Below the pieces are notes generated by a model, which did no database searches, was not told the origin of the DNA, and saw only the letters and a program-made list of their open reading frames with translations. DNA of 60,180 nucleotides, filler included, from Hausera hauseri (lineage: Eukaryota), in the NCBI GenBank assembly GCA_046269625.1. It is 11 parts of 11 records of this genome, joined end to end, with 100 filler letters (N's around TTAATTAATTAA, not from the genome) between each part and the next. Parts side by side here need not be neighbours in the genome. Positions count along the whole stretch, not along the records: positions 1 to 8,086 come from JBJURY010786534.1; positions 8,187 to 14,329 come from JBJURY010134206.1; 9 more parts are not named here. The stretch is one strand, 5' to 3'. Below, piece by piece: positions 1 to 47,133 of this stretch (within the stretch, counting starts at the first letter, position 1; every line of letters starts with the position of its first letter). The position numbers were made by a program, and so were the translations under genes.

Positions 1-950
1 TAACAAATTCCCTCTTTACTTGCGTCTGTTTTAATTATAAATGGTAAATTAAAATCGGGATATCTTAGCACTGGTTCACTTGTTAGAATTTTCATTTCAT
101 CTAACGCTTTTTGTTCGATATTGGTTTATTTCCACTTGATCCCTTTTTTAAATAGTCGATATAATGGGCATTTATTTTCGATTTGTCTGGCACATAAGTG
201 GCATAATACCTACATAAGCCTAACCAATGTGTTAATTCTTTCTGATTTCGGGGTTCTATACAATCCGATATTTTGCTCAATAGATTTATCTGCCTTCGAC
301 CCTCCTTCTCCGACTATATGTCCAAGATAAGATACAGCATTCTGTGCCCATTTACATTTCTTGGGGTTCAGTTTTAATCCTGCCTGTTCTAATCGCATGA
401 AAGTATCTTCGATGTATTTTAGGTATTCTTCCGTTTTCGATGCTATCATTACGTCGTCTAAATAGGCGAACGCATGATGAAGTCCCATTAGCATTTTATT
501 CATCATCCTGGTGAAGATGGCTGAGCCGATTGTTATACCAAATGGCATTACATTAAATTTATAAACTCCGTCTTGCGTTTTAAACGCTGTTTTATAACGA
601 TCATCCTCAATTTCTACTTGCCATTATCCTGATTGTAAATCTAATGTGGTAAACCATTTTGCTCCTGATAATGTCTAATGCTTTCTTTACTGACGATAGC
701 GGAAGAGTATTTAGGGTTCGGTAATCTGTACAGAATTGATGTTTAGTAGTACCTTTTTTCTTGACCATGAGTATTGGTGAATACCAAGACCGGTAGCTTG
801 GTCGTATTATGTCGGCCTTCAACATACGTTCTACCTCTTTAGTTATTTCGGGACTTAGTGAATGAGGCGGTGGGTACCATTTAGTCATCTTTTGCTCTTC
901 CAAATCAATTTCATCATTGGAGCCAGGTTTCTTTTCTAATGGAATTGTTA
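1..950 (-). pseudogene. Gypsy reverse transcriptase and connection domain (copy 1)
   Basis: ORFs 607..903 (EVERMLKADIIRPS, SPILMVKKK) and 210..548 (MPFGI, FAYLDDVMIAS, LKLNPKKC, VSYLGHIV). Confidence 0.95.
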
Positions 951-1029
951 ACCTTAAGGTTTTTGCTCTACCTATATCTTCATTCTGGGCAATAATCGAC
1001 TTATATTTGCATAATAATTTGTAAAATTG

Positions 1030-1830
1030 ATATTATACTTCTGGTGCGAATTTAGTTTCGACATGGGGTGGAAACTCAGCATATTTGTATGATTTTTTCT
1101 CGATTGTTAATGCCGACACCTTACAAGTATGGCCCAATGTAGTATTGACATATAACCTTACGGGGGTTGGCGCGTTATTCACTAATCTGATCGGTACTCG
1201 ACCTGTCACCACTCTTGTCAAAATGTTACTATGATATTTGGGTTAACGTCTTCTTGTGGCTCCAAATATACCGGTTGATCGTCTTCTTCTTGGATTTGAG
1301 CATAAATTAACATTTCGGTTCTGGGCGGAATGTTTTCGTCGACGGGAAGCCATACTTCTAGCTTCCTTTCTTTCATTGTTTTAATCCCTCTTACTGGTCC
1401 GAGTTCAAGTAGTTTCCCAGTATGTAAATTTATTGCGATATTCGATAATTGTTTCAGTATATCGCATTCTAACACTACATTATCGGTTAGTTGATCCATT
1501 ATGGCAAACTCGTGTCGAAGAATTTGACCCACTTAAATTTCGGTTTGGGTTCTTGCCCGAAGGCTTCTATGCTGCTCGGATCCGACGACGACTCTGGCTG
1601 CAATTGTTTTCATAGTGTCGGCGGTATTGATTCTAACTTGATAAACGATTTTTCCGATCCGCTGTCGATTAAGGCATAGACTTCCCAATCCTCAATGGTA
1701 ACTTTTGTGAAGGGCTTTCCTTCCATAACTGTTCCATAACAACTTGCCACGTCCTTCGGTCGTTTAATTGAAGAAATCTTATGTCCGTTTATTGTTATTT
1801 CTGGTGATGAAATAATATTTTCTGTCAACT
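1030..1830 (-). pseudogene. Retropepsin-like aspartic protease and PR-RT spacer (copy 1)
   Basis: VYALIDSGSEKSFI in ORF 1610..1828, then ECDIL (LGCDIL in copy 2) and the IPPRTEMLI...VPIRLVN spacer common in Gypsy pol. Confidence 0.9.
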
Positions 1831-2399
1831 GTTTCAGTTCTTCGTTAGGGTATAAATCATTAATTGCTATGCTATCTGCATTGCCTCTAATTAATTGTTC
1901 TTGTACTATTGGATTTTGGAGCTATTCCGATCCTTGTATTCCCGAAACTGATCTTGACTCTATATTACGAGTTATTCTTTGTGAGTACAATATTTTATGG
2001 TCATCTTACGCTCATCGCTGATTAGTGATTTGCATTTTCTTCAATACTCCGTATTGTTTTTTTCCTTCATAAGGGTCTTCATAGCTGAAGGGTTTCCGAT
2101 GGATTTCCGATTTGTACAACGTCATCGATGTTTTGTCGCAATCTTCGTATATTGGAGCTGTCGGCGGCATGATGGGTAAAGGTGTCTTAATTACTGAATA
2201 CATTTTGTGTCTATTCGTCTGAGGATTGCTTCTCCCTTAGGCTCGTCATCATCTGAGTTATCTCTTCGTGTTGTTAATTTCTTAGCTTTGCGTTTCGATA
2301 GAAATATGGGTCTTGCTTGTCGTTTGTAATTATGGTAGCCGACATGGCGTTCAACGTCATTCTTCCACCGATTTTCTTCATAGGCTTTAAGCATTTTGC

Positions 2400-4295
2400 C
2401 GAAAGGTGTGATAATTGCGGTTAAAATCTTGCAAGAAAATTCTGTTAGCGTGAATATTTCGTATCCATTTATAACCGCCTGAATTACTGCCTTTATTAAG
2501 TGTACCAAGAAATAAATTGCTAAAAATCCCGATGCGGCTTGTCCAAAGATCAAAAATCGTCCCCATATTTTGTAGAGTATTTCTCTGGTCACCCGTTGGT
2601 AATGATTCACATTGAGTAAAGATTCCCATTTAGCCTGATGACGGGTATCGTCTACTACTTATGCCATGGCTCGATTTAATTCGTGTGTTCGCTGTCGTGG
2701 AAAAGCGAGAAATTGTCGAAAAGCTTCGATCTCTTGGTCTGTAAATGCCCTTTTGTGACGTATCCTGGAACTTGTCGTCGGTAATTTCTTTCGCTAAATT
2801 AGTTCCAGTTAGTTTTTTAGGAACGATAGTGACACCTCCGTTAAGTAAACTAACCCAATCCGTTTTGCTACGTCTAAACATTGGTTTACACAAACTTGCC
2901 TTACAATCCTTTAGGATTGTAGGTTGTGTTGCGTTGTCTATCAACAGCCTAGTGAGGGGCATGGCTAACCGTGGAGTGTTCTGATAGATCACAGGAAGCT
3001 CCTGTATACATCGTTTTTCTTTGACATTAATTGGTACGTCTCTTTTCTCGCACTCATGTCAGTAGAACTTTGCCCGTAACTCGACTAAANNNNNNNNNNG
3101 TTTTTCTTCAACGTTGATTAGTACATCTCTTTTCTCACATTCATAAGTCAGTAGAACTTTGCCAGTAACTCGACTAAAGATTCCTTCTCTCATGGGAATA
3201 ATCGGTGAGGCTAGCTCAGGGTTTACATAAATAAGAGCTAATTTTGTCCTCATAATCTCCGTATCCAATTTGCAATCATTAGTTATCATTTTATGGTATA
3301 GTTCGACTATCCCGACTTGTCCTTTATAATAAAAATAATCGTCCCGGTTTTCAGATAATCTTCAATTCGAATGTCCTTCGTTTCTAAGTTATGTTTTCGC
3401 GTTTATCTCCGTTTCTGCGACGAAAAACGCTTCAGTTAGTGATGAACATTACTGCTTCGCAACGTGAAATCATTTCTTTTTTATGAATTTCAACCCATGT
3501 TGATCAGAAATTAGTATTGTAGGTGTATGATGTTCTAATACGTTTTCACGTGTACTTGAACTGACGTCAGATTTGTCTAGGTATCTCTTTCCGGTGGTTT
3601 TATTAAATTTCAGTTCCTTAATCTTAATAAAATTACAGGCCTTTTCCGGAAGGCGGTTTCCATATTACGACAGAACGTCTGAAGGCACAGGTTCCGTCCT
3701 GTATGTGACATTTTTGATTCTCGGTATATAGCTTAGTGACTCTGGAACATCACTTTCTGGACTCGCATTTCCGATTCGTAAAAGTCTACGACTTTTACAT
3801 TTGCTTCTAATCCTTTTCCGGTGTCGTATTCTGTTCCACTACATTGGCCATTATGCATGTCTAACCTTCCGACTACTATATTATATGCTCTGATTATCTT
3901 CTCAGGCTGCATCTTTAGTTCCATACTATCTCATTTTAGTCTTCCGGTTTCTCGAGCCTGTTTGCAGTGTTGCCTTTCCAAATTCATTGGAATTGGAGGG
4001 GTCGTTGGTTTGGTTATCGAGGAATGTCCATGCATTAATCCACAGTGGAAAATGCTACGAGATCGTCTCAGCATACACTCCATGCCGTCAAAGGATATCA
4101 ATTCTTGTTGTTAGTATAGGAAGTAGCTTTTTTCCTTTGTCTCCAATTTGTGAGGTCTGGCATCTTCACATGCCTCTAGGTGCATTAGTGAATATATTTG
4201 TCTAAGCTTAAATCTATCACAGTCATAGGCAGTAACAGCACCCATCTGTTTTATTAGCATCATTATGGTGAGTAAGCTGATTAACCAACTAGATT
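2400..4295 (-). pseudogene. Chuvirus-like (Jingchuvirales-type) envelope glycoprotein, copy 1
   Basis: Hydrophobic signal WLISLLTIMMLIKQMGAVTAYDC; YSL..LEAC; GQCSGTEY; ITNDCKLDTEIMRTKLAL..NP; KGIY; C-terminal TM WGRFLIFGQAASGFLAIYFLVHLIKAVIQAVINGY. Motif order matches chuvirus G as I recall it. Confidence 0.8.
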
Positions 4296-7200
4296 CCTTC
4301 TTTCGGTTTTTATTATCCGTTGTTGTCAAGTTCCGTAAGATGTCTTCGAGTCTATTGTTACTACTGGTCTTTTTATCTTCTTCCTTATCAAATAATCTTG
4401 GCCAATTTACTTCGCACGGAAGCTTCCTAGCCGCTTTCCGCGCCAAGCTTGTAGCTCGATTGAATTCATTTTCTCGATATGGATTTATCTTGATTAGTAA
4501 GTACAATAATACTTTCCTTAGCTCTTCTGTCGTATTTTCTACCGTGATTTTCTCAACTACTGCGTCGTCAGTTAGATTACTTTTTGATAACTTGAAACGT
4601 GAACTTCTTATTATCCTAGCCGCGTTAAACATTGCTTTTTCTTTATCATCTAATGTATCTCCTCGAAGGCTCGAAAAATTTACGATTCATATTAAATTCC
4701 TTATTAATTCATTTAATTCTTCACTATCCGCACTGAAAGTGGGAATTGACATTTGTCTCAATTCTCTAATTAATTCACCGTTATAGTCCGCTTCTTCTCG
4801 GGTTTTTCTAGGCCTACCGACGGGGCGTTTTGGTTTTGGGACATTGGCCATTATTCCACTCAGTGGCACTAGATTCTTATCGTATTGTTCCTTGTCTTCA
4901 TCCGTTTGTAAATACTCGAAATACATCGCAGCATCTCTTACTCCCACGATTTGTCCTGCACATTGCTCCGTCTTAGCCTTACGCGTGGCTTCTGTCTGTT
5001 CATTAGCTATTATTACCACTATTCGATTTGTTTTGTCGGGGATAATTCCGACGTTTATTAACTGTTCTAAATCGTTGAGTATTCTACCTCTAAAGTAAAA
5101 TTTGTAATTTAGCTAATTTGTTCCGTCATTCTTTAATAACCATTCTCTTATGTCATTTACATGAGAATGTGTAGTTAACTCACATTCCTTTTCTTCCATC
5201 CACTCGGATGATACCATCACTTTCATCGTTACCTCAGGTTTAGCCCTCAAGATGTTCGCATACTTCTTTATCAAAAGTTTCGGCACCACGCTGTAAATTG
5301 TGTTCTCACTAGATAATTTAGTCAAGGTCGGAATAAGTTGTCTTAACTTATTTTCAAAAATGTTTACGTTAATTAGTTCAATCAATTCCTTTTCGGTTAG
5401 CGCTGAGTCCAGGAGCATCTCCACATTGAATTTCCTGTTCAGAGGATACGTTTCTATTTCATTTAGATGTACCGGAGTTACCGGATTTTCGGCCGTTATT
5501 GCTTCTAAATAAGCATCCCATTTGGGTTCATTCCCAATATCTGGAAGTCCATAGTCTGCTAGGGCTGTTTGTTCTTTGTACATTCTCTCGAATTTCTTTC
5601 AATTTTGGATGTATTTCTTTCATCTGCGTAATCCGGAAACCTATTCCGTTTCCACAGGCATATTGAATTATTTTCAATAGTTTGCCTAATTCACCAGAAT
5701 TGATGATCTCTCTCTGGTGATAATCGGTTAGCTCAATAATTACATCTCTGCCATCTTTGTACAAATTCTCGCTTATTTTTGATTTCTGATCCCGTAAAAG
5801 CGTAATTATTCCGGTAGCTTTCAAACTCTTACTAGTTCATCTAACCTTTTTGCTCTTTGTTCTGTTCTGATGCACGTTTCTTCGACTTGCTGTAATTTGG
5901 ACATCAATTGTCTCATCTTCTCATCATCAATCTCCGCAATTTCTACCAATAAGCTAGCCAATACATCTCATTTATAACTTTTGAGTCGGGATCTATTGTA
6001 TCCGGCAATTTCTTAACGAACTTAGATTCTTCGCAACTAAGGCGTTGGTTGTTTCTTATTTTCGTCAACTCAGTATGACAGTTCTGATCTGTACCGGCCA
6101 TCCATTCTTGTGGTTTATGCAAGAATCTTACCTCTTCAGTCAGAGCTGCTCTATGTTCTGGACAAATATCTAGGGTTTCGATATCTTGGATTGAAATCTC
6201 GTCAATAGATTTATCTGTTAAATGTTGGATTCCTTCTCGTCGGATGCTTCGTAACCTTGAGTAGAAATTGCAAGTCATATTTCGCTTTTCTGTAAAGTTC
6301 GTCTCTGATCATTTTATATCTTCCAATATCATTACTTCTTGCTTCTTCATAAAGTTTAGCTGTCGTAAGGCTTCAAATTGCATTCGGATATTTATCTCTG
6401 CTTGCATTGTATTTAAATTACGGGCACCTTCTTCTAGTTGTTTTTTTATAGTTGGTTCACTTTCTGGAAATTCTTTCTTACGGTCTTCTACTAATTTACT
6501 TAATCTCTTTATTAGTTCGTATTATTCTGACAATTGATTGGCGATTATTGGCTTTGCTAATATTGCTTTATCTAGCATCTTATGCATCCTTTAATTCGTC
6601 ATCTGGACCATTTCTGAAATTTATGATTTGGCTAACAGTTAAACTCGTCCTTATATTCATCGAATTCTATGATGCACGCCTTTATTATGAATCTGGTTTC
6701 TTCGTTATTCATTAACATAATTCGATTTTTCAAACTGCTGATTTGTGACCTTCTTTCATTCTGCATTTTAATACGATTTTATAAATTCGTGTATCGTCTG
6801 GGCTTGGTAAAGGCAATTTTTATCATCTCCATTAAGGGAGGAATATCTTTCGGATCTATACCCAATATTTCTAAATCAGCATCTTTTCGAATGCTAACCG
6901 ACTTTTCTCTAAGTTGGTTGATCATAGCATAACGGATTTCATCCGTCTTACGTTCTAAGTTACGGGCTACTCTCTTCAACTTGGGATTAGCTTCTAAGGT
7001 AGATAGTAACGTTTGTGCTTCAGCGACTTTTACACCGACACTATCTTCGTCTTTACTCCATCCTTCCAAAATTCGACTCCACTTTTAATCTGTTACTCTA
7101 ATTCATGGTTCCAATTCATCAACATATACCATGATACCTCTTCGGGTTGTCTTAATTTGATTGCTTTATCTAGCTTCCCTTCGTTACATAATTTTAAACT

Positions 7201-7990
7201 TTTATATAATTTCTCCGCAAATTGTTGTTCTTTACCAGATATATCTGCTTGTTTACTGATCTGTTTAAATCTTTCTAAATTGTGTTGAAGTAGCTCCGAA
7301 TCGTGACACCTAGTTCTTGTTCTCTTAACTCGTCGGAATTCTTCCACAAACGTCGAAATTTCCATTTTCTCCTATCAAGATCATTATTATCTTCCGTTTC
7401 TTCCTCACTAGTGGGAAGCGGACAAATTTCATTAATTTTGTCATTAGCGTTTATTATCTCTGGTGTTTTCAACGTTTCAAAAGTCTTTTTAGGGGTACTG
7501 GAAGTGTCTGAGGGTGAGTTGTCTCTAAAGGTAACAGTTTCTTCCGAGCTCTTTTTAACCGGAGACCGGGAACAAGCCTTAGATTTCCTCTTAGATGATG
7601 GGCTTCTACACTTATTCTTCGTTATTTTGAGAACTAATTCACTTTCGACTTCATTTATCGTTTCATCTGGGTTGTACTTTTAAAATTCTGCGTCTAAATC
7701 TACATGCTAATATGCCGTTGGTTTCTCTGACTGGGCTATTCCTTGGGGAATAGACTTTTTACGCGCCATATTATCAACGCTTGGTGCCCGTGCATATTCT
7801 TCCTCGGTTGGTGGTTCTCTTAGTCTATGATAGGCTTTCATTAGCCGTAATTTCTCTTCATTTTCTTTTCTAGCCTTTATGACTTGAGAATTAGCAGTTT
7901 TACCTAGATTCCTTACCGATCTACGTAGATCTTGCATTTTAATGATCAAGCTTATGTCACCTCACTTACCATAGATAGTTTCTAAATTAT
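4296..7990 (-). pseudogene. Unknown region X of about 1200 codons between Gag and the glycoprotein; charged, with UBL-like and AT-hook-like segments
   Basis: Chain of minus-strand ORF fragments (7707..7949, 7093..7365, 6779..7069, 5943..6278, 5528..5824, 5113..5583, 4687..5019, 4111..4632); the 3' half is conserved at protein level in copy 2 (12700-14329). Confidence 0.75.
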
Positions 7991-8039
7991 TCTTAATCAT
8001 GCTCGTTTTATTTGGTTCTGTAAACGCAACACTTCTAGG

Positions 8040-8086
8040 ATTCGGACATGACTTGGAGATGTGTCCCTCTTTGCCACATGTAAAAC
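8040..8086 (-). other. Gag nucleocapsid CCHC zinc knuckle
   Basis: Minus strand reads (T)GT TTT ACA TGT GGC AAA GAG GGA CAC ATC TCC AAG TCA TGT = CX2CX4HX4C; first base of the first Cys codon is in the gap. Confidence 0.88.
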
Positions 8087-8186
8087 NNNNNNNNNNNNNN
8101 NNNNNNNNNNNNNNNNNNNNNNNNNNNNNNTTAATTAATTAANNNNNNNNNNNNNNNNNNNNNNNNNNNNNNNNNNNNNNNNNNNN
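8087..8186. other. Artificial contig spacer; also at 14330, 20381, 25423, 30621, 35565, 41391, 46125, 50658 and 55488
   Basis: N44-TTAATTAATTAA-N44, with stops in all six frames, identical at all ten joins. Confidence 0.99.
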
Positions 8187-9400
8187 AGATTTCCTTGATC
8201 CACCGGTTTATTCTACATGTCGGGTTGTTGACCCATCCTTTTAACGTTGTAACAGCCTTGTGATTGGTAACTATAATAATATTTTGCCCGTAGACGTAGA
8301 CATTAAAATATCTTAAAGCTTCTTTTACGGCTAATGTCTCTAGTTCAGTGACCGAATAGTTTTTTTCGCATTTTTTAAGCGATTGTTCTTCATATGCAAC
8401 TGGATGTTCTAATTCTTCACCTTCTCATTTCTAGGCCAATTAGTAACCAATTCCTTCTTTACTGGCGTCGGTTTTAATTATAAACGGTAAATTAAAATTG
8501 GAATATCTTAGCAATGGTTCACTAGTTAGAATTTTTTTCATTTCACCGAATGCTTCTTTTTCGATCTCGGTCCATTTCCACTTGATCCTTTTTTTCAATA
8601 GCCGATATAGTAGTGCATTTATTTTCGAGTTGTACGGCACAGAAGTGGCATGGTACCCACATAAGCCTAACCAATGTCTTAATTCTTTCTGGTTGTGGGG
8701 TTCTATAAAATCGGATATTTTGCTCAGTAAGGATTTATCTTCTTCGACCCTCCTTCTCCGACTATGTGTCCCAAATAAGATACAGCATTTTGTGCCCATT
8801 TACATTTCTTGAAGTTGTGTTTCAATCCTGCTTGTTCCAACCTTATAAGAGTATCTTTGATGTTCTTTAGGTGTTCTTCTGTTTTCGATGCCATAATTAC
8901 ATCGTCTAAATAGGCAAACGCGTGATCGAGTTCCATTAACATTTTATTCATCATTCTGGTAAAAATAGCTGGGCCGGTTGTTATACCGAACGGCATGATG
9001 TTAAATTCATAAACTTCGTCATGCGTTTTAAACGCCGTTTTATAACGATCATCTTCTTCAATTTCCACTTGCCAGTATCCGGATTGTAAATCCAGTGTGG
9101 TAAACCACTTTTGCGCCTGATAGTCTGTCTAATGCTTCCTTGACCGACGGTAGTGGGAATGAGTCCTTCATTATGAGCATGTTCAAGGCTTGGTAATCTA
9201 TACAAAATCGATTTTTAGTGGTACCTTTCTTCTTGATCATGAGTATCATTGAGTACCAGTACCGGTAGCTTGATCGTATTGTGTCGGTGTTCAACATGCG
9301 TTCTACCTCTTTGATTATCTCTGGCCTTAATAAATGAGGAGGCGGGTACCATTTCGGCATCTTTTGCTCTTCCAAGTCGATTTCGTCATTGGAACCAGGT
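8187..9400 (-). pseudogene. Gypsy RT and RNase H (copy 2)
   Basis: DSFPLP, LDLQSGYWQ, KTAFKT, YEFNIMPFGI, YLDD, TDAS, HPVAY, NYSVTELE, VTNHKA. Confidence 0.95.
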
Positions 9401-10330
9401 CACTTTTTTAAGGGAATAATTAACCTTAAGGTTTTTGCTCTACCTATATCCTCTTTATTTTGGGCAATAATCGATTTATATCTGCATAGTAATTCAGGAA
9501 ACTGACAGTATGCTTCTGGTGAAAACTTTGTTCCAACATGAGGTGGAAGCTCGGCATATTTGTATGGTTTTTCTTCCATTGTTATTGCCGACACTTTATA
9601 GGTATGACCCATGTAGTAGTATTGGCATACAACTTTACCGGGAGTTGGCGCATTATTTGCTAATCTGATTGGTACTTGTCCCGTCGTCACTCTTGTTAAT
9701 ACGTTACTGAATATGATATTTGGGTAAATATCTTCTTGTGGCTTAAAGTAAACTGGTTGATCGTCTTCTTCCCGGATTTGAGTATAAATTAATATTTCGG
9801 TTCTGGGTTGGATATTTTCGTCGACGGGGATCCATACTTCTCCTAGTTTCCTTTCCTTCATTGTTTTAATCCCTTTCACTGGTCCGAGTTCCAGTAGTTT
9901 TCCAGTATGTAAGTTTATTGCAATATTGGGTAATTGTTTCAGTATATCGCAACCCAATACTACATCATCGGTTAGTTGATTTATTATAGCAAACTCGTGT
10001 CGAAGAATTTAACCCATTAGTTGAACTAAGGGACTCCACTTAAATTTTGGTTTACATTCTTGCCCGAAGGCTCCTATACTGCTTGAATCTAACGACAACG
10101 CTGGCCGTAGTTGTTTTAGTAGTGTTGGTGGTATCGATTCTAACTTGATAAACGATTTTTCCGATCCAGTGTCAATTAAGGCGTAAATTTCCAAATCTTC
10201 GGTGGTAACTTTTGTGAAGGGCCTTCCTTCCATAACTGTTCCAGGGCAACTTGACACGTGCTTTGGTCGTTTAATTGAAGAAATCTTATGTCCGTTTATT
10301 GTTATCTCTGGTGATGACATGATATTTTCG
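9400..10330 (-). pseudogene. Aspartic protease and spacer (copy 2)
   Basis: IYALIDTGSEKSFI in ORF 10009..10494; GCDILKQL in ORF 9400..9957. Confidence 0.9.
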
Positions 10331-10899
10331 GTCAACTGTTTTAGTTTTTCGTTAGGGTATAAGTCTTCTATGCTGTCTGTTTTATTCCTAATTAAGGGTT
10401 TTTGTACTATTGTATTTTGGAGCAATTTCAATCCTTCTATTCCCAAAACAGTTGACCTTGACTCTATGTTTCGAGCTATTCTTGGTGAGTACAATATTTA
10501 TGGTTGTCCTCTGCTCGCCGTTTGTTAATGACCTGCATTTTTTTAATACTCCATATTGTTTTGTCCTTTCATAAGGGTCCTTATAACTGAAGGGTTTCCG
10601 ATGGATTTCCGATTTGTATGACGCCATAGATGTTCTATTGCAATCTTCATATATTGGAGCTGTTGATGGGATGATGGGCAAGGGTGCCTCAATTACTGAA
10701 TACATTTTGTGTCTATTTTGTCTGAGGATCGCTTCTTCTCCCTTAGGCTCGTAATCATAGGAGTTATTTCTTCGTTTTGTTGATTTCTTAGCTTGCAATT
10801 TGATAGAAACGTTGGTATTGCTCGTCGTTTCTAATTGTGATAGCCGACATGGCGCTCAACGTCATTTTTTCATCGATTTTCTTCGTATGCTTTAAGCAT

Positions 10900-12695
10900 T
10901 TTACTGAACGGGGTAATAATTGCAGTTAAAATCTTGCAGGAAAATTTTGCTAGCGTAAATATTTCCTACCCATTTATGATTGCTGGGATTACTGCTTTTA
11001 CTAATTGTACTAAGAAGTAAATTGCTAAAAATTCAGGTGCGGCTTGTCCAAAAATTAAAAATCTTCCCAATATTTTATAGAGTATTTCTGTGGTTACCCG
11101 TTGGTAATGGTTCGTGCCAAGCAGGAATTCCCATTTAGTCTGATAACGGGTATCTTTTACTACTAATACCATGGCTCGCTTTAATTCATGTGTTTACTGC
11201 CGTGGAAAAGCGAGAAATTGTCGAAAAGGTTCGATTTCTTTTGGTCTGTAAATACCCTTTTGTGATGTATCCTGGAACTTGTCGTCGATAATTCCTTTTG
11301 CTAAATTGGTTCCAGTTAGCTTTTTAGGAATGATAGTGACACCTCTATTAGGTACGCTAACCCAATCCGTTTTACTACGTCTAAACGTTGGTTCAGCCAG
11401 ACTTGCCTTACAATACTTTAGGATTGTGGGTTGTGTTGCGTTATCCAACAACACCCTAGTGAGGGGAATGGCTAACCGTGGAGTGTTTTGATAGACTACA
11501 AGAAGCTCTTGTATACATCGTTTTTCTTCCACATTAATCGGCACCTCTCTTTTCTAGCACTATTATGCTAGTAGAACTTTGCCAGTAACTCGACCAAAAA
11601 TTCCTTCTTTCATGGGAATAATCGGTGAGCCTAACCCAGGGTTCGTGTAAATAAGAGCTAGTTTTGTCCTCATAATCTCCGTGCCAAATTTGCAGTCATT
11701 AGTTATAATTTTATGGTATAATTCGGCAATCCCGACTTGTCCTTTATAATAAAAATAATCGTACCGTTTCTTTAGATAATCCTGTGTGTCTAAGTTATAC
11801 GTTTTTGCGTTTATCTCTGTTTCTGCGATGAAGAACGCTTCATAGTTGATGGTGAACATTACTACTTCACAACGTGAGATCATTTCTTTTTTATAAATTT
11901 TAATCCATGTTGATCAGAGGGGTATGATGTTCTAATACGTCTTTACGTGATCTTGAACTCATGTAAGATTTGTCTACGTATCGTTTCCCGGTAGTTTCAT
12001 TGAATTTCAGTTCCTTCATTTTAATAAAATTACACCCTTTTCCAGAGGGCGGTTCCCATATGGCTAAGGAACTTCTGAAGGCGCAGGTTCTATCCTGTAT
12101 ATGGCATTTTTGGTTCTCGGTATATAGCTTAGTGAAGCTATGGAACATAACTTTCTGGACTTGCATTTCCAATTTGTAAAAGTCTACGACTACTACATTT
12201 GCTTCTAATCCTTTTCCGGTATCGTATTCTGCTCCGCTACATTGCCCGTTATGCACATCTAACCTTCCGACTACTATTTTATATTCTGTAATTATCTTCC
12301 CAGGCTGCGTCTCTAGTTCCATACTGCCCCATTTTAGTCTTCCGGTTTCTCGGGCCTGTTTACAGTGTTGCGTTTCCAAATTCTTGGGAATTGGAGGGGT
12401 CGTTGGTTTGACTATTGAAGAATGTCCGTGCATTAATTCACAGTGGAAAACGCTACGAGATCGTCTCAGCATACACTCCATGCCGTCCAAGATTATCTTT
12501 TCTTGTTGTTGATATAGAAAATAACTCTTCTGCTTTGTTTCCAATTTGTGTGATCTGACATCTTCACATGCTTTTAGGCCCATTAATGAATATTTTTGTC
12601 CAAGCTTAAATCTATCGCAATCGTAGACGGTGACAGCGACCATCTATTTTATCAACATTACTATGGTGAGCAAACTGATTAATCAATTAGATTTA
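10900..12695 (-). pseudogene. Chuvirus-like envelope glycoprotein, copy 2
   Basis: ORF 11900..12643 VYDC...YSL...C...RSVFHCELMHGHSS...CKQARETG...NGQCSGAEY...NVVV; 11563..11883; 11194..11544 RCIQEL.V...PLTRVL...KGIYRPKEIEPFRQFLAFP; TM in 10966..11172. Confidence 0.82.
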
Positions 12696-14429
12696 TTCTT
12701 CATATTATCCGTTGTCGTCAAGTTCCGTATAATGTCTCCGAGTCCATTGTTACTATTGGTCTTTTTATCCTCTTCCGTATCAAACAATATTGGTCAATTT
12801 ACTTCACACGAAAATTTTTTGCCGCCTTTCGCGCCAAACTTGTAGCGCGATCAAATTCATTCTCTCGATTTGAATTTGTCTTGATTGCTAAGTACAATAA
12901 TACTTTCGTAGCTCTTCTGTCCTATTCTCTACCATGATTTTCTCAACTATTGCATCATCAGTTAGGTTACTTTTTGACAGCTTGAAACGCGAACTTCTCA
13001 TTATCCTTGCTGCGTTAAATATCGCTTTTTCTTTTTCATCTAATGTATCTCCCCAAAAACTTGAATAATTTACGATACCTATTAAGTTCTTCATTAACTC
13101 GCTTAATTCTTCATTGTCTGTGTTAAAGGTTGGAATAGACATTTGTCTCAGCTCTGGAATTAATTCTCCGTAATAGTTAACCTTTTTTCGGGCTTTCTTG
13201 GGTCTTCGGAATGGGCGTTTTGGCCTTGGAGCATTGTTTGTTATTACACTTAGTGGCACTAGATTCTTATTATATTGTTCCTTGTCTTCATCCATCTGTA
13301 AATACTCGAAATACATAGCCTCATCTTGTACTCCCATAATTTGCCCTATACATTGTTCCGTTTTAGCCTTTCTCGTGGCTTCTTTTGTCTGTTCGTTGGC
13401 TATTATTACTATTATCCGATTTGTTTCGTCGGAAATAATTCCGACGTCTATTAACTGTTCTAACTCGTCGAGTATTCTTCCTCTGAAGTAAGATTTGTAA
13501 TTTAGCTCATTTATTCCGCCATTATTTACTAACCATTTTCTTACGTCCTTCACGTAAGAGTAAGTGGTTAGTTCCCATTCTTTTTTGTTCATCCACTCGG
13601 ATGATATTATTATTTTTTTGTTACCTCAGGATTATCCTTCAAAATTTTCGCATACTTCTTTATTAAAAGTTTCGGCACCGTGCTATAAATGATGTTTTCA
13701 CTGAATAATTTAGTCAAGGTCGGAATGAGTTATCTAAGCTTATTTTTGGTAATATTTACATTAATTAGTTCAATCAAGTCCTTTTCGGTTAACACTGAGT
13801 CCAAAAGCATCTCCACATTGAATTTCCTGTTCTTCGGATACATTTCTATTTCATTTAAGTGCATTGGAGTTACGGGATTTTCGGCCGTTATTGCTTCTAA
13901 ATAAGCATTCCATTCTGGTTCGTTCCCAATATCGGGAAGTACATAGTCTACTAGGGATGTGTTCGTTCTTTGTACATTTTTTCGAATTCCTTTCAATTTT
14001 GGTTGTATTTCTTTCATCTGCGTAGTTCGAAAACCTATTCCATTTCCGCAGGCATCCTGAATCATTTTCAGTGCTTCGCCTAATTCATTAGAATCGATAA
14101 GTCCTTTCTGGTGATAATCGGTTAGTTCAATAATTACGTCCTTTTGCCATCTCTGTACAAACTCTCGCTTATTTTTAATTTCCGATTCGGTAAAAGCATA
14201 TTTGTTTCAGTAGCTTTTGAATTTTAGCCTCGTTGCTCTTTGTTTTGTTCTGATGCATGTTTCTTCAACTTGTTGTAATTTGGGTATCAATTGCCTCATC
14301 TTCTCATCATTAATCTCCGCCATTTCTACNNNNNNNNNNNNNNNNNNNNNNNNNNNNNNNNNNNNNNNNNNNNTTAATTAATTAANNNNNNNNNNNNNNN
14401 NNNNNNNNNNNNNNNNNNNNNNNNNNNNN

Positions 14430-14899: not shown

Positions 14900-16330
14900 G
14901 AGTCTCATGCTGTTCTTCTTGGGCTTTTCTCAGAAAATTTTGCGTTTCCCTTTTAATTTTACTAATATAAACTTTCATTGTAATAAATTCTTCTTTTAAT
15001 TTGTTTTCAAAAGAATATACTGGATATCCTATTGATGGATTCATAGCCATACCGGCAAATCCCAGTTCACATTTCATCTGTTTAACATTGTCACAAATAA
15101 ACTTAACCAAATTCGTTTGGTCGCTTTTAAAACCGGCAACTTGTGAACGAGTGTTCAACAGATTAGACTGACATTTGTTTTTCATTTGTGACATTAAGTA
15201 ATTCTTCTTGAAGTCTTGTTGCTTCTTTAGTCTTATCGTCTAATCTCATCGTCAATTCTTTAACTACAGCGATCATATCTTTAGCTTCTTTATCACGAGC
15301 TTCAAATTTATTCTGAAGAGTTGCATTATCCTTTGATAGTATTGCATTTTCTCGTGCTAATTTTACAATTTGACCTTTAACATTATCAACAAATGCTTTC
15401 AGTTTATTTGCTGTTTCGGTCAATTTTGCAAAATTTGCATCCTTCCTATCTATATCGGCATACAACTCTTTCACTTTTTCATCATCAATACAGTCTCTGT
15501 TTTGACTCGTTTGTTTCGTAGCTTGTATTTTGGTTATTTCTTTCACAGCTTTACTTTCCTTCTCAACTTCTTGGCATGGATCAAATATTTCGTCCCAGTC
15601 AGCCCTGTCAACCTTTTCTTTATTTCTCCATATCTTTAGTTCTGCAACAACTTTATTATATGATTCAAGTATGGAGTCATATTTTTTCTTCAAATCCAAG
15701 TATTCATTTCTCCACTGCTCAGCACTAAGTTGCATGTTAACAGTGACTATGTTTTTAATCGTCTTCATTCTCTGGCCAAATAAACATGTTTATTTAGTTT
15801 CAGCTTCATTGAATTAAGCGGGTGAACAGCAAATGATCATCATTGTTTTAGAATTCCCTCCAAGAGAATCTTGTAAAAGTCTTGTTAATTTTGCATCTCT
15901 ATATGGAACATGCGCCACTCCTTCAGTCAACGAATTGATCACATTTCCAAGAACTGAAAGTGATTTATTAATATTTTAGCCTATTCCAAAGTTTGTCCCT
16001 CGGCCTCTGTTTTGCTAACTTTTTTGCTGCCTGCCAAGTCAACAAGATAAAATCGGCTGGTCAACTGTTGTTTCTGAGTTAGATTTTCCTGTTGTATGTT
16101 AAGACAAAATAAACAATGGCTTATCGAACTTTCTTTATTCATGGCGGTTGAGGCCACCCTTCTGTCATCCTGTGTAGTCAGTACGACATTCTCGGTTCTG
16201 TGATTGCTGGGACCCATATATCGATATACATCTTCATGATATATTAATAATTTCCAGATAATATGATTGAATATATTGAATATTTTGATCGATCATATCA
16301 ACATTTTCTAAATTTACATCAAACGAGGCC
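14900..16330 (-). pseudogene. KIF5: Kinesin-1 heavy chain pseudogene (motor C-terminal half, neck, shortened stalk)
   Basis: [87 protein letters not shown]; in-frame TAG/TAA at about 15981, 15815, 15793; no introns seen. Confidence 0.9.
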
Positions 16331-21639: not shown

Positions 21640-24600
21640 CTTTAATGCCCATACGTCCAACTCTTACTTCGCCCCACCCGATTTTGCTTATCATCGTTAC
21701 ATGACAAAGAGACTTTAGCACTAGTTATTGTATACAGCTAGTGCTCAATTGATGGGATGATCGTTTGAGACACAACAGCCACTGATTGTCCTCCTCCTTC
21801 TGCTGCTACTGCTTCATATATGCGGCGATAATTACCGTGACCGATTTTCGTCTGCCTCAGCTGAACTTATTTTTCCTGCATTTTCGGTCCACAGTCCGTC
21901 AGAAGATTGTGGCACTTTGGGCGTAGTAATATCCATTTCCGATGCCGGACACGATCTTCACTTTCATCCTTGAAGCAGCCGATTTTATTGGTGGTCGCAC
22001 TGCTGTACAACGGATGATCCGGTAAGTAGTTGGACGTGTCCAGTAATCCATCTGACTGCATTTGCTGCAGTAGCTGTTCGCGATTGACATTTTTCAGACG
22101 TAGGAAAAAACTGTCTGTGTCATCGGCAACTATGTCAATATTGCATCCTTCAAACATTTTCCGGTAACGTGCCAAGTCGTAATACTGCAGTTCACTCATC
22201 CGCAACTTGTTCAGGTCCAATACCACTTGTCCAATTTAACTTGGCCGATCCAAAGCGACTTTTTTCCTGTTTAACAACACCGCAACCATCAATCGGCAAT
22301 GTGCATTGACCACCGAAACTGTAACTTGCTGGTACACGTGACCAGCTCTTTTCCAAGTTACAACCACTTTTTCAGTTTCTTCACTGTTTTTCCATACAGG
22401 GAATTGTTTTTCAACTTGTAGTAATCCTTTTCGAACTTTGTACAAGGTGCGGTTCGTTTCTCCGATTTTTCATCTATGCACGCCTTAAATATTGGAGCCT
22501 GAGCAAATCGAATTGCACGATGCAGCTGTGTGTCGCATACACCGAGCTGCATGTAAAACTGTAGCAGACGCCAATGGACCACGTAGTTCAACTTCGGTTC
22601 ATGAGTCATGAGCAGTTTCTTCACTTTTAAGCTGGGCGGACATTGGTTAAATGATGCGACCGGTAAATCGTCCAAAACATCATGCAGCTCATCTGGTATC
22701 TCAAGATCGACCTCCATCAGGTATCCAACTGAGCCTGCCATGTCTGCTCGTGGTAGGTTGACCATTATGTCGTCCAGATCTTGTCTGCCGACTACCCATT
22801 CAAATGAACCGTACGAAAAGGGTTGCGAAAGCGCCCAGCCATAGAGGTTATTAATATCAATATACAGCAGTGATATAATATCGGTAGCACGGACCTGATG
22901 CTTGTTGACAAATGTCATGCAGTCGTGAATACCAACATGAAACAGCCGATAAATTTCCGGGTTTTGCAGCAGCTCGATGTCTTGATCCAGTAACATTAGA
23001 GCTGACGCCCAACTCATTCCCGGTATTGAATAAAAGTTGAGTGGCCTCAGCCTATCTTCAGCCAAAGCTTTTTCTCGAAACGCTTTGAACACATCGGCTA
23101 ATAAGTACACGTCCAGTTTAAAATACTGGAGCATGTAATCCAACATGTTTCTACAGCCGAGTTCTGTACAACACCTCTGTTCTTTCCGGTATTCATCCTC
23201 TGCAATACCTGTCCATCACAGAGGTAATTCCTATGCTGTCCAGAGTCGCTCATATGATGTTGCAAACTCATATGGAAATATGCCTTTGCTGTGTGCAATA
23301 TGTGCATGGAACTGCGTCAATGCTATCGGCACATCTGGCAAGGCATTTACCACCTTTGACAATGATTCATTGAGAAATTTCAATGAATCAAGGAAACGTA
23401 CCTGGAATCGCTTTACACGTGCCGACAGCCATAAGTATTTTTTCATTGTCGTTGTGATTATGGACAGTTCCCAGTGCGGAAAGCCGTTAATAGCCCATTT
23501 GAGAATATGGTGAGAGTCATAACCTCGGAAATTATGAAAGATCACCGGCAGGAATTGTTGCACTCGCCTTGCTAAATTGCATGAATTGCATGCTGCTCCC
23601 AGGTATCAACCGGTGAAATTGTTGTGATTCGGTACGAGCCGTTCCTGTTCATCAAACGGTATTATTTTGTGGCACAGATAGCATCCATCGGTGACAGAGA
23701 AAAGCAACGGTTGATATTTCTCTGCCCAAATCAATGTCTTATTGCAATTGTTGAGATACTACGACGAGATTTCCGTTTCCACTATTGTTTCCAACAGCTG
23801 CAGAAAATCACGTACATGGTTCCAACCATGGAAAACGTAATACTGCGGTTGTTTGGCGGCTCTTATTAGAACTAGCAACATACCGACGGTAATTGGAACG
23901 TGCTTTAGATCGTATACATTGTGCCATGGTAGAATTGCTTCGATATCGGCATACACGACATATGCCGGACTGTCCGTTTTAGACCAATCACTGAATGTGA
24001 GCTCCTTTTTGACGGGCATGACGTACATTGTTGTCCTTGATGCGTTTTGCCTGCATTTTGTGACATGTTTCTTCCACGTTCTTTCCGATCTGAATCCATG
24101 CAGACATATAGGACACCATTAGCATCGTATTCGTTGTTTAATGAACTGGTCATGCTCCATGTTCAACAGTCTATCCAGATTTGTCACTGCTACGTAATGA
24201 AATTTTTCGGCCTGCTCCAACAGCAACAAAATTACCGAGCGTCCATTCAGGTTCCGACTACGATGAATTATGTCCACATGGGGTTCTTATAAATTTCTCC
24301 GTCTTTCGGTATTTCAGCTATTGTGTTGTACCGGAAAACGTTGATTGACAGCGTCGGATTACGCCCGAAAAAAGCTGGCATTCATCAAATTGCAATTGGG
24401 CAAAATAATGCCCATACTGATTTGGACGATTTGCGTGATATTTGTTCACTTCGATGTACTTCAGTACAACCAGAATACTGCATATAAAACAGTATTCGTC
24501 GCCGTCTTCAGTATTTTGTACATTCATTACAGCCAGAGACTGATTAGAGATACAGGTGTCGGTATGAATGACCGTCCAGACAAATACACCACGTCATTCG

Positions 24601-25800: not shown

Positions 25801-26719
25801 TAAAAAACTTTCCCACGCTCAATGCTTTCTTTCCCTGGCGGGGGCTTGGGGCAATGCACTCCTTTCCATCTACTGACGATAAGTTTGTTACGTCGGTTGC
25901 TAACGAATTGGGTATTGCTGTTGATGCATTGTACAGAGTTCTAGCCGAAATAAATCGGCTTTTGCGGAGAATTCCGCTGGCCGTTAGCGAATGAGAATCG
26001 ATGGTTCTGTGGGCCTCGTTCTGCAGTGGTGTAACGGAATCACCGGAGACTTCCTGGCTGCCGGGATTTAACCAGTACAGTCTATACGAAGAACCGTTAT
26101 GTGACGGGGAAGGTAATTGTCATGATGAAGAAGGCGTAAACATCCTATACGCAACTGAGTCCACGTATATAATACGTGTTAGCACGGTGTCCGCCGATGG
26201 GAAATTGCAGTTGGGTTTGCCGACGATGGGGTGTCCGCAGTTCGTCACGAGAACATTGTGTCTGATAATTACAACATTACAATTGGTAAATGCTACTGCC
26301 GATAAAAACACAATAGCACAACTAGTATAGGAATGAATTGAAAGCATTACAAAGTCGAAACAAATATCCTCAACACTTGAATAAGGAATTATTTCGATAT
26401 AACTGCATCCAGGTGTCTTTTTAATTTGAAAACTGAGTTCGTTCAAGATTCCTTCGTTTGAATCCAACTGAATCCTCTCCAACGAAGATTCTTCATTTTC
26501 AGTTCCATTTTTGCTGGAGAAAACCTTACGTGTCTAACTTATAAATTGTTCACGGAAATCTGAATTATGGAGTAAAAGTATCAGTCTAGCTGTTTCAGAG
26601 ATGTGTTCATCGTTTCGGCAGTTACGAGCGACCCATTTATTAAACGAACCAAAATACATTTTAAATATGCGGTCTGTTTCCGATATAATATTACAAATCC
26701 TAATCACGGGAACTCTGTT

Positions 26720-27800
26720 ATTCTGCTTATCCCTCTTGAACTTATTCAGAATTGCGAATAATTGTGCCTCGTTTTGTTTAGATTTTTTTAAAATGTTAAT
26801 TACGACGGACTTCGAAACTCCATCGTATGGACTGTTTTGTTGACCATATTTTCTGATATACGTATTCAAATTAGTCGACAAAATCAAATCAGTAAGTTGC
26901 CTCATTTCTTCAAAAACCAGAATAATTGTATCAGGAGAAACTCCGGTAACTGGAATATTGCGAGAAATTTCCACAAGACATTTTATATCAGCCGATAATT
27001 GTTGCACGAACTTTCTCAATCTGCGCGGCTCATATTCAAGGAATTTACGAACTTTTTCTTGATATATTTGCATGATAACAAGCATGCGATTTGGGCTAGT
27101 CGAGCCGGCAGATTTGTGCAATATTCAAACGTCGTCCGTAAATAAGAAATAACATTGGAATTAAATTCCGAGGGAGGTGCAATGTCGCTAGTGGTAACTG
27201 AATTAATTTTACGATTCAGGAAATGGATTTCGGGGTTGCCATTAGACGAAGAGTGTGAATTAATTTCGACATATTTTCATGAAATATGTGATCAAACATG
27301 ATCACAAACAAAATGTTTGTGGAATGATTTAATTGACCTTTCAATTGCTTTTGATGCAGTTCCAAATTATCAGTAAATTGTTTCGACTTTTTATATGGTC
27401 TCGAAAAGTCTGGTAAATACTGAGTACCATCCAAGAGAAAGATAAGCTTTTAGGACAGGATAACGAGAGAATATCTGGCGATTGAAAACTAAGGTATAAC
27501 TCAACAACCAATTCTATTTTCGAATGACGGTTGACAATGATAGCAGAATAATCTTCACCTTCGAAATTTTCTTGGGATTGCTTTAAATATTCGTACGAGA
27601 GGAGCCTTTGATACTCTTTTCTTAGACTATTATACAACTGTTTAAACCCGGCAACATTAAAACCAAATAATCTCATTGTCTTTCCAAAAGGTACACGATT
27701 GTTTTTGAATTCTAGCAATGTATAAATGTCCTTAAATGTCAGTTTGTAGTTGATGTTGCTTACAATGGTTTCCAGTATAAACAAAATAAGGTCGTCATTA
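26720..27800 (-). pseudogene. EXOC6: Exocyst subunit Sec15/EXOC6-like decayed fragment
   Basis: TMRLFGF...LRKEYQRLL...FEGEDYSAI; FSWMVLSIY; STNILF; VQQLSADIKC...PVTG...DTIILVFEEMRQLTDL...NTYIRKYGQQNSPY...KFKRDKQ are colinear with the Sec15 C-terminal half; split across frames. Confidence 0.7.
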
Positions 27801-29489: not shown

Positions 29490-30620
29490 ATACCCCCCGC
29501 CCCCCACCATGGCTGAGTTGATAAACAATAAAGGAAAGGCTAAAAGAAAACTGTAGTATCACCAGAACAGACAAATAATTTATCTAACAAGTTTTTATGC
29601 GTACAAGACGTTGTACTCCATCGATGTTTAGTTCTCTGCTATAGTTACTGAAAGTAGCGGACTTGCGACATACCTTGACTATAGTGTCTGACTGCTGGTG
29701 GTGTTTGTCAATAGAAATATTAGTTTTAGTGTGATTTGATGTTGTTGCTGTGGAAGGTAATATAAAAAGTTGAGAAGATGTGGTTATAGCTGAATTATCC
29801 TAGTTTTCTGCGGTAGTTTGGGTAGGTGACAAGTACAGAGGTTAATTGGGAATAGGCGGAGGTATAGAAATATGGGGTGGTGCAGAAGTAGTGTTAAAGT
29901 AGGGGTAGAGGGAAATGTAGGGAGTAGTGGATTTGGTAGATGATGATGTCGGCACATGCGTGGTAGACGGAGGAATTGAAATCGGGGTAGAGGTGGGTAC
30001 AGGTGTGATGAATGAGGTTGATGTCTCGGTTGGTGAGGTATCGTCCACGAAAAAGGAGGGTTTTAGATTAGTTATATGCACAACAACTTCTTTCTCGTCT
30101 TTGAGGATAATACCGCTGTGTGAATGCAGCTGTACCAACTTATATGGTCCTAAGTACAGTGGTTGGAAACCGCACAGTGTCTGGTTTTCTAGCCATACAA
30201 ACTTTACCGAGTATAAGTCTTCGGGTATATAAGATTTGTCATTGTGTGAAAGCCTGCAAAACGAATCTTTGATGATTATAACAAAATGATATTGTGCTGC
30301 TCGTATTCTTTCATCCGTAGAAGACTGTTCAAGAGCCGTTAGTTCAAAAGTGATCGTACAAAGGTTCCGAATAAATCTTCCGTTGGTGAGTATCCTGTGG
30401 ACGTGGCCGAAGTGTTCTACCAGCTCAACAGGACGAACGGTAGAAGTGTAATCCAATTGGTGTTTGACTGTGTAAGGATTCGAAGTTATGTTTTTAAGGT
30501 TCGGTGGAAACGTTCGAGCAGACGATTTGATTGAGGATGATAAGGTGTTGTATGAATGTGACTTATACCCAATCGATTGACTAGAGATTTGAACAGATTT
30601 GACTCGAATTGTAGACCTTG
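29490..30620 (-). mobile_element. 3' end of a CsRn1-like Gypsy element: integrase C-terminus, Pro/Thr-rich tail, polypurine tract
   Basis: HTTPYHPQSNRLLERFHRTLK (30490-30560), LQPLYLGPYKLV, PPT GGTGGGGGGCGGGGGG at 29493-29508; homologous to 41491-41900. Confidence 0.82.
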
Positions 30621-38300: not shown

Positions 38301-38339
38301 CACTATTTGTAAAGTTGGCATTTCTAAAAATTTAAGGTA

Positions 38340-45435: not shown

Positions 45436-45599
45436 GCCCGAGAATTAAATTCGCGATTCACGTTACTCAACACGTTGTCTTCTTTCGGTTCCCGTAAATT
45501 ATTATGAATGCAAACCATATTTGCCCATTTGTTAGATGTATGGAAAAATTGCACAAAACTCACTTTAGAAGCAGGCAATAATCGAGCGGAGGAAGTGTA

Positions 45600-45950
45600 G
45601 GCACCACCCAGGAACAAGGAACTTCTCATACCGGCTTTTCTCGTCGATAACAAGTGATAGAATATATGAAATGATCTTTCTGTTTCTGTTGATACATTCA
45701 ACATTCTTTGAGATTTCTCGAGGATGCCCGAATGAGAAGCTGAAAGTTTTGTTTCGTGTTATGCGGTAAACGTCAACAATCCCTTTCAACAATATTATCC
45801 CCTTATCGGTACTAAATACCTCTACTTTAAGAGGTTCCGTCTCCACTTGATAAATGACTCGAGAAACGTCAGTAATTAACTTTCAACATTTAGCTAGACA
45901 TCTTAACCATTGTTCGAGCATATTTTCGCGACGACTGTGTTGTCATATTT
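45600..45950 (-). pseudogene. Myosin motor-domain fragment
   Basis: ILEKSQR......ERSFHIFYHLL resembles the myosin LLEKSRV...ERNFHIFYQLL motif. Confidence 0.55.
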
Positions 45951-47000: not shown

Positions 47001-47133
47001 TATGATTGGCTTTAAGCCATTGTAAATAAAACTGTAACCAAGTGCGCCTCGAATTGGTTTTATCAAGAAAAATTCTGAGCAGGAAAGATTTGAAGATGTA
47101 GTTGGTGTGGGGTCGCAGGACGATGACCAGATC

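Follow-up and report, generated by a model that had tools for sequence, protein, structure and literature searches.

Decayed Ty3/gypsy copies with a predicted gB-type glycoprotein between gag and pol, likely from a Burro-like polyprotein element of a flatworm

Described elements with an envelope gene between gag and pol

The giant gypsy-like LTR retrotransposons Burro / GYPSM1 of planarians, more than 30 kb in size (Arkhipova and Yushenova 2019, PMC6431247, where Jurka 2007 and Grohme et al. 2018 are cited for them), code in one ORF, in this order, for Gag, CCHC, Smc, MATH, a ubiquitin/SUMO-like domain, BCL2, Env, protease (PR), reverse transcriptase (RT), RNase H (RH) and integrase (IN). Decayed fragments of Burro are reported in Dugesia japonica (PMC6431247). 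Ty3/gypsy elements with a GAG-ENV-POL order and an HSV/gB-type env are described in Platyhelminthes, Nematoda and Bryozoa (Chary and Hayashi, eLife 2026, PMC13524379). They are not monophyletic in POL, and the main text of that paper has no words for a fused polyprotein and no mention of Burro. In 38 of the 55 flatworm assemblies of its supplement 6, no parasitic flatworm has more than one ENV hit and none is marked as annotated. The same paper cites non-canonical endogenous retroviruses of nematodes in which ENV and POL are flipped (Sacco et al. 2022, J Gen Virol). Troyka (PMC12440569) was set aside as a comparison because it is not relevant.

The window is the whole stretch analysed here (60,180 nucleotides, filler included, from Hausera hauseri, assembly GCA_046269625.1), which strings together separate contigs with N spacers between them; neighbours need not be linked. 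It holds, we conclude with good confidence, decayed Ty3/gypsy copies with a predicted gB-type glycoprotein between gag and pol, likely once translated as one long Burro-like polyprotein; the host is likely a flatworm. With Burro, as described in PMC6431247, the window shares an Env that lies between gag and pol, probably in their frame, and matches mononegavirus fusion glycoproteins, a CCHC motif, likely ubiquitin/SUMO-like cargo ahead of env and many copies. It differs from that description in having no match to MATH, BIR or ankyrin, in a dUTPase-like region that has no Pfam hit and in a host that is probably not a planarian. The Ty3/gypsy pol, the gene order and a chuvirus-like gB-type env placed after a signal/membrane segment are common to the GAG-ENV-POL errantiviruses and the window (PMC13524379). 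The nine flatworm elements of that study, from Macrostomum, Prostheceraeus and Schmidtea, are intact while those of the window are relics: the study includes elements with intact ORFs and near-identical copies, and the three pieces found here are broken and about 83% identical. The nematode elements, compared by their description only, likewise carry an RNA-virus glycoprotein in a metavirus, in nematode hosts. Anakin elements of mosquitoes (Dezordi et al. 2020, PMC7642597; Dezordi et al. 2023, PMC10084718) share a chuvirus-related glycoprotein within an LTR retrotransposon, but their pol is of BEL/Pao type whereas that of the window matches Ty3/gypsy families and Ty3 RT. The layout, put forward as that of a candidate new family in an earlier sequence-only reading of this DNA, is that of families already catalogued (PMC13524379, PMC6431247).

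Organization of the copies

All coding parts lie on the minus strand in the order zinc knuckle, X, G, protease, RT and RNase H, distributed over three partial copies that all carry stops and frameshifts and have a pairwise identity of about 83%. Positions 8187-14329 (copy 2) run through X-G-PR-RT-RH and positions 3100-8086 through knuckle-X-G, both gap-free as the sequence-only reading had claimed, and the motifs on which it relied were all recovered in place on the minus strand. The gag-X-G-pol order that it ascribed to two copies stands, but its first copy is composed of two pieces of different copies joined across a scaffold gap of 10 N (3090..3099); the flanks share an overlap of ~78 bp that is just 86% identical, which brings the number of partial copies to three. 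Knuckle and RT are spanned by no single gap-free stretch and are linked through 2.8 kb of X and G present in both copies (3100-5946 versus 11520-14329, 83% identical). Two copies that diverged independently, 1-3089 and 8444-11598, cross the G-to-RT junction without a gap and are collinear with 82-89% identity in every 300-base window. Both pol-bearing contigs end within RNase H; capsid, integrase and LTRs of the element fall beyond the contig ends and so are missing from the window, as are the termini of the element. A splice-donor-like hexamer occurs once, where gag ends.

Copy 2 matches 14,847 of the 15.5 million contigs of one sequencing run, in 30 of 30 bins and with about half of them less than 90% alike, which fits a large diverged family. 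This run, the only one listed, contains 0.34 of the query words and may be the source sample, its depth not being equivalent to copy number. RNA runs containing the words are not found among the runs listed. Scans with DNA patterns identified no related locus in two sets of metagenome contig stretches (0 of 80 and 0 of 43) or in viral contigs (0 of 9), and a word-index search with a 247-aa piece of G gave none among 201 candidates.

Gag knuckle and X region

The Gag CCHC zinc knuckle (8040..8084; PF00098, E 2.3e-5) lies at a contig end, with the capsid beyond it, and aligns with the knuckle of the relative P0121. It is followed by the upstream part of X (5233..7961), a long, highly charged coding region (34-37% charged residues in four scanned pieces, all free of hydrophobic segments) which is broken by stops and frameshifts and has no Pfam match below E 0.03. 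This part begins in the frame of the knuckle after one stop, in the only copy that shows the junction, and its dN/dS is 0.18 over the 155 codons common to copy 2. The X of copy 2 (12638..14329, cut by the contig end) is 83% identical to 4228-5946, with dN/dS of 0.18-0.23.

X likely holds a ubiquitin/SUMO-like domain, as judged from profile, shuffle and ESM Atlas comparisons, of which each gives a weak signal when taken singly. In piece 3100-8086 the domain (5000..5232) is the top match to a profile of three relatives in the six frames of the window (8.5 bits, E 0.077), and none of 110 shuffles reaches its hhalign score. Its counterpart in copy 2 (13385..13625; again 0 of 110 shuffles) scores 0.90 in the ESM Atlas with a PF00240 cluster and 0.89 with PF00240/PF11976, three unnamed clusters scoring 0.91, above PF00240; Pfam and PDB sequence searches gave no match for the domain. 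An AT-hook-like motif is found at 4795..4830 (PF02178, E 0.22, below the cut-off), and P0121 has such a motif after its ubiquitin-like part. At the place of the Bcl-2-like domain of relatives there is a helical segment (4365..4746) that aligns end to end with their profile, 4 of 110 shuffles scoring as high; hmmsearch found no Bcl-2-like domain in the window. The single-sequence fold of X has a pLDDT of 34, too low to be of use, and the best Atlas score of a 245-aa X piece is 0.78, a lead only. In the scanned pieces of X, Pfam gave no match for MATH, BIR or ankyrin; weak cargo domains could be missed as X is broken.

The end of X is joined in one frame to G by an internal hydrophobic signal/anchor segment (4228..4284, hydropathy peak 1.69) that also precedes G in relatives, which does away with the idea of X as a gene of its own in a gag-X-env-pol series. 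The ubiquitin-like domain, the AT-hook-like motif and the internal signal follow each other in the same order as in relatives.

The glycoprotein and its intact relatives

The G of copy 2 (10852..12637, about 600 codons, TM helix at 10975-11031) matches the Monjiviricetes fusion family, Pfam PF24664, in three pieces that keep the order of the profile (positions 23-227, E 8.9e-15; 278-378; 392-494). Piece 3100-8086 carries the amino-terminal part (3100..4227), recognized by PF24664 and by tblastn to intact polyproteins, and piece 1-3089 the carboxyl-terminal part (2305..3089, TM helix at 2470-2526, hydropathy 2.16), which matches profile positions 383-483 and 518-611 (E 1.1e-15). Identity to the envs of ten polyproteins is 23-28% over about 550-570 residues (E 1e-38 to 1e-79), versus 19% to the named chuvirus G. 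The intact relative P0124 aligns to the window G over 567 residues (27% identity, E 1e-72) and its fold model (pLDDT 71.6) resembles herpesvirus gB (E 2.6e-13, with low TM-scores of about 0.27) and the G of a chu-like virus (E 2e-38). The gB-type fold is seen on P0124 only, the pieces of the window being assigned by PF24664; G is accordingly predicted to be a gB-type (class III) fusion glycoprotein. When the G profile was searched against PDB sequences, only pseudorabies gB was returned (E 0.44-0.57). The chuvirus-like class III glycoprotein of the earlier reading agrees with these matches, and its position upstream of protease and RT is observed within gap-free stretches. In a quick tree that includes a single named virus, the window G is a long branch (2.62). 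It belongs to a clade (11 rows, SH-aLRT 96) in which six rows have pol domains and which leaves out the G of Wenzhou crab virus 2.

Fourteen of the 48 G relatives were scanned: 4 combine G with protease, RT, RNase H and integrase in a single protein, and 2 have a CCHC knuckle before G. P0291 is a complete example of 3,735 aa (capsid-like, CCHC, ubiquitin-like, Bcl-2-like, G, PR, RT, RH, IN). In P0291, P0121, P0123, P0129 and P0169 the order of parts is that of the window and G is 27-28% identical, but these proteins are intact, unlike the window copies, and nothing in them detectably matches the upstream two thirds of X.

Pol and its placement

Copy 2 codes for an aspartic protease (10010..10365; a weak PF00077 match, E 0.0034, and tblastn) and for RT and RNase H (8188..9400; PF00078 (RVT_1), E 5.9e-29, PF17919, and PF17917 (RT_RNaseH), E 2.8e-18) up to the contig end, before integrase. 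Protease, RT and the start of RNase H are also found in piece 1-3089 (1..1858; RVP weak, RVT_1 E 8.6e-21, tblastn). The region between protease and RT described as dUTPase-like gave no Pfam match. The best PDB matches are Ty3 RT (E 6e-26 and 5e-25), retroviral RTs being weaker, and the listed RT homologs carry Ty3/gypsy-type domains; together with the PR-RT-RH order this bears out a Ty3/gypsy pol.

The best BLAST matches of the RT are env-less elements (43-45% versus 33-42% for env-polyproteins), and PF24664 is not found in 120 listed RT relatives, which are proteins of 390-2,000 aa only, the longest polyproteins being excluded. The RT and G trees, of the kind that the earlier reading proposed, give a divided answer: G groups with polyprotein envs while the RT does not join env-polyprotein RTs in free quick trees. 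A clade of the window RT with env-polyprotein RTs, constrained on 228 columns, has a higher likelihood and is not rejected (p-AU 0.557).

Reading frame and selection

In X and G dN/dS is 0.18-0.23 (0.22 in G), versus 0.65-1.66 in shifted frames, which shows past purifying selection on both; X, at about 0.2, was coding. The 1,873 codons compared in 34 gap-free blocks have 13 and 12 stops private to one copy and one common stop. Third-position bias continues from G across the linker into pol and the frame changes between G and pol fall at indels that differ between copies; from this codon bias and these private indels we infer that G and pol were continuous in one frame.

The single block of the 34 without a frame free of shared stops corresponds to a frame break in the G ectodomain at an A-run (11880..11900, minus strand), common to the other copy (near 3480). 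It is likely homopolymer decay and possibly programmed recoding, in which slippage at the A-run would yield an excess of Gag-X over full Env-Pol instead of a plain single polyprotein. For recoding speaks that this is the sole break common to two copies 17% apart and that synonymous changes are in excess on both sides of it, an excess not given by a simple inherited loss of env. However, A-runs are prone to indels (3 of 4 runs of seven are gapped between copies), no stable structure follows the slip site (z from -1.5 to +0.6), G is read through without a break in intact relatives and the break is known from two copies only. Programmed recoding is thus held to be improbable, and the fuller proposal that a Burro-type element spread in a fish-parasitic flatworm, balancing its one-to-one gag-env-pol ratio by slippage in mid-env, is highly doubtful. 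Neither such recoding nor such an element in a parasitic flatworm was found in the open-access papers searched.

Origin of the element

An assembler could have joined X-G and pol from different repeats. The contigs are short, the assembly is repeat-rich, one scaffold join does link different copies and no record of the sequencing run spans the stretch; the two diverged copies collinear across the G-to-RT junction and the same order within single proteins of intact relatives make such a chimera hardly credible. The independent capture and candidate new family advanced by the sequence-only reading would have a Gypsy lineage take G straight from a chu-like RNA virus and evolve gag-X-env-pol alone. 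The RT, a long and unplaced branch that is not nested in env-polyprotein RTs, the lack of PF24664 in the listed RT relatives of that size range and the non-monophyly of published GAG-ENV-POL elements in POL (PMC13524379) would suit this origin. It is very unlikely, given that gag-env-pol with a gB-type env is published (PMC13524379, PMC6431247), that G is closer to polyprotein envs than to the sole named chuvirus and groups with the former, which argues against independent capture, and that the ubiquitin-like domain, the AT-hook-like motif and the internal signal are ordered as in polyprotein relatives. Recombination of a Burro-type X-env block onto another Ty3/gypsy pol lineage would reconcile a G that clusters with Burro-type polyproteins and an RT that scores closest to env-less elements. 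This swap is rather unlikely: one clade of the window RT with env-polyprotein RTs is not rejected and has the higher likelihood; 228 columns resolve little.

The reading retained is that of a Burro-like polyprotein element, which is a divergent lineage. Its host is probably a fish-associated flatworm. A KDM5 gene on a separate contig groups with three flatworms (SH-aLRT 98), in a host tree without a free-living flatworm and from an assembly that also holds foreign-looking DNA.

Proposed mode of action and implications

The copies of the window are dead. In a functional element Gag and X would be synthesized in the cytosol. The hydrophobic segment ahead of G would then target the ribosome to the ER, where its cleavage by signal peptidase would leave Gag-X tethered to the membrane. 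G would go into the lumen and, with its carboxyl-terminal helix halting translocation, the enzymes encoded after it (protease, RT, RNase H, integrase) would stay on the cytosolic side. One membrane would thus bring capsid, fusogen and enzymes together. The parts would be set free by the viral protease, and the particle, budding off with G, would pass into neighbouring cells of the germline or stem type. The ubiquitin-like domain, and the Bcl-2-like domain if present, would be inherited cargo that modulates the host. If slippage did operate, most ribosomes would stop inside G and a share would go on to full Env and Pol; a programmed env break, if true, would explain how one-protein retroelements balance capsid and enzymes, a proposal based on two copies and a mutable A-run.

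As layout and env type are already in print, the element is a data point rather than a new kind. If the host is a parasitic flatworm, Burro-type enveloped elements would extend beyond the free-living flatworms of the published table. In this very divergent lineage, env has travelled as one block with the internal signal and the likely ubiquitin-like cargo.

Organization of the Element and Its Copies

The window is made of unrelated contigs of 4–8 kb each with N spacers between them, and the element occupies two of these (1–8086 and 8187–14329). The flanks of a 10-N gap at 3090–3099 overlap by ~78 bp at only 86% identity, which indicates that the first contig joins two different copies. The resulting three partial copies are ~83% identical pairwise and collinear throughout; many diverged pieces that span the whole of copy 2 (8187–14329) are found in one sequencing run. 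All motifs named in the sequence-only reading were found, on the minus strand. The CCHC knuckle of Gag lies at 8040–8084, and Pfam identifies a protease (weak match), RT and RNase H after the predicted gB-type fusion glycoprotein region (G). The best match of the RT/RNase H piece among solved structures is the Ty3 RT. The capsid, integrase and LTRs fall beyond the contig ends, hence outside the window.

The observation is real and was read correctly, and the element is a decayed example of an already known gag-env-pol kind. Its earlier proposal as a candidate new family is superseded by GAG-ENV-POL elements with a gB-type envelope already in print: Chary and Hayashi (PMC13524379) describe such Ty3/gypsy elements, with a chuvirus-like ENV, from nematode, bryozoan and flatworm hosts, citing Sacco et al. 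2022 for the nematode ones. The window element resembles those described there in that it would act likewise, has the same gene order and carries the same env type. Assignment by order and env fits the GAG-ENV-POL gB-type group, short of strict membership of Burro, the planarian giant retrotransposon.

Glycoprotein G and Its Relatives

G aligns to PF24664 (Monjiviricetes fusion glycoprotein) in six pieces that follow the order of the profile; two pass the cut-off (E 1e-14 to 1e-15). The full HMMER search gave 48 relatives of G. Among the 14 that were scanned, four have G, protease, RT, RNase H and integrase in a single protein, and in two a zinc knuckle precedes G. The relative P0291, picked up as a cluster mate of an RT match, is a complete polyprotein of 3,735 aa with capsid-like region, knuckle, G and all pol domains. 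The fold was predicted for the intact relative P0124 (pLDDT 71.6, pTM 0.45), to which the window G is 27% identical across 567 residues. In the PDB this model hits herpesvirus gB (E 2.6e-13, TM ~0.27), and in BFVD it hits glycoproteins of chu-like viruses (E 2e-38).

A quick G tree of 22 rows (25 candidates minus four too short, plus the window) places the window G, a long branch, in an 11-row clade (SH-aLRT 96) in which six rows have pol domains. The G of Wenzhou crab virus 2, the one named virus among the rows, sits in a separate clade. In two quick RT trees (62 of 127 rows, and 26 rows) the window RT forms its own long branch, and a constraint grouping it with six RTs of env-polyproteins was not rejected (p-AU 0.557). 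The RT trees do not separate descent from a cassette swap, in which an X-env block of a Burro-type element recombined onto a different Ty3/gypsy pol.

Note that the relatives P0123, P0126, P0132 and P0169 carry two to seven aspartic-protease-like repeats downstream of env, P0169 featuring ankyrin and C2H2 matches too. P0129, a gag-env-pol retroelement polyprotein filed as a bacterial metagenome-assembled genome, is probably animal sequence that ended up in a bacterial bin.

Region X

The region between knuckle and G (X) spans ~1,280 codons, and its end continues in the reading frame of G via a hydrophobic segment. Between copies its dN/dS is 0.18 and 0.23 (0.22 in both halves of G), compared to 0.65–1.66 in shifted frames, which shows that X was functional coding sequence in the past. 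A ubiquitin-like profile was built from three relatives, one found via a sub-threshold Pfam match and two by eye. When searched against all six frames of the whole window, two copies of one X site rank first and second, with low scores; with a five-relative alignment, none of 110 shuffles reaches the score of either copy. The ESM Atlas value of this site to a ubiquitin cluster is 0.90, and Pfam and PDB sequence searches gave no match to it. This probable ubiquitin-like domain has no terminal Gly-Gly, which favours a role as interaction module over one as cleavage tag. An AT-hook-like motif comes after it. Several relatives have a Bcl-2-like segment directly before the signal (Pfam E 0.001–0.055); the window segment in that position (4365–4746) aligns with it over the full length, though weakly (4 of 110 shuffles score as high), and hmmsearch does not detect it. 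The upstream two thirds of X are charged and were unmatched in the comparison with relatives.

A Probable Single Polyprotein with a Break in Env

In 34 gap-free blocks from X to RNase H (1,873 codons, best frame) 13 stops are confined to one side and 12 to the other, with one in common. The third-position bias extends from G through the linker as far as protease and RT; along this stretch, every frame change falls at an indel that differs between copies. Together with the intact relatives, these features favour a single polyprotein. One site departs from this pattern: a frame break at an A-run within the G ectodomain, shared by both copies that reach it (near 11,890 and 3,480). Programmed slippage at this site is improbable, since A-runs are unstable in this element family (three of the four seven-base runs show a gap between copies) and the sequence downstream of the break forms no stable RNA structure; the break more likely arose by loss in each copy independently, or by sequencing error.

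A splice-donor-like hexamer and a single in-frame stop codon are found at 7960–7975, immediately past the Gag knuckle region. Both are seen in just one copy, and decay, read-through and splicing are all candidate explanations.

Host and Other Features of the Window

The element GC (37–38%) is inside the range of the other contigs (34–42%). A KDM5 gene (53282–55531), whose frame of at least 734 codons is intronless, matches Schistosoma mattheei best and groups with three flatworms in a tree of 29 rows (SH-aLRT 98) that has long branches and includes no free-living flatworms. The placement of the host among flatworms is inferred, because this gene is on a different contig from the element. The 64% GC stretch from 14430 to about 14900–14956, which resembles a fish cut-homeobox (CUX2-like) exon, suggests that the host is a fish-associated parasite. 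It joins gap-free to AT-rich DNA with a divergent kinesin-heavy-chain-like gene on the opposite strand (15163–16292), the junction being either a chimeric contig or host DNA taken up by the parasite.

A second Ty3/gypsy family (41491–47142) has gag-like, protease and RT-RNase H-integrase frames, with no PF24664-like match in that interval; a further integrase fragment lies at 30384–30620. Fragments of a protein-primed type B DNA polymerase family lie at 22358–23215 (PF03175, E 1.6e-7 at 22361–23215), 35782–40656 and 48727–49685, and several contigs hold related repeats that have also diverged; together these suggest Polinton/Maverick-like relics. A C-terminal fragment of exocyst Sec15 is found at 26534–27124 (PF04091, E 1.5e-8).

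Proposed Mode of Action

Hydropathy, read in the light of how membrane proteins are generally inserted, suggests how such a polyprotein may operate. Gag-X would be cytosolic and the internal signal would be cleaved by signal peptidase, leaving G luminal up to a putative stop-transfer helix on its C-terminal side, after which Pol would again be cytosolic. Capsid and enzymes would in this way be tethered at the fusogen-bearing membrane, an arrangement that may favour budding of enveloped particles.
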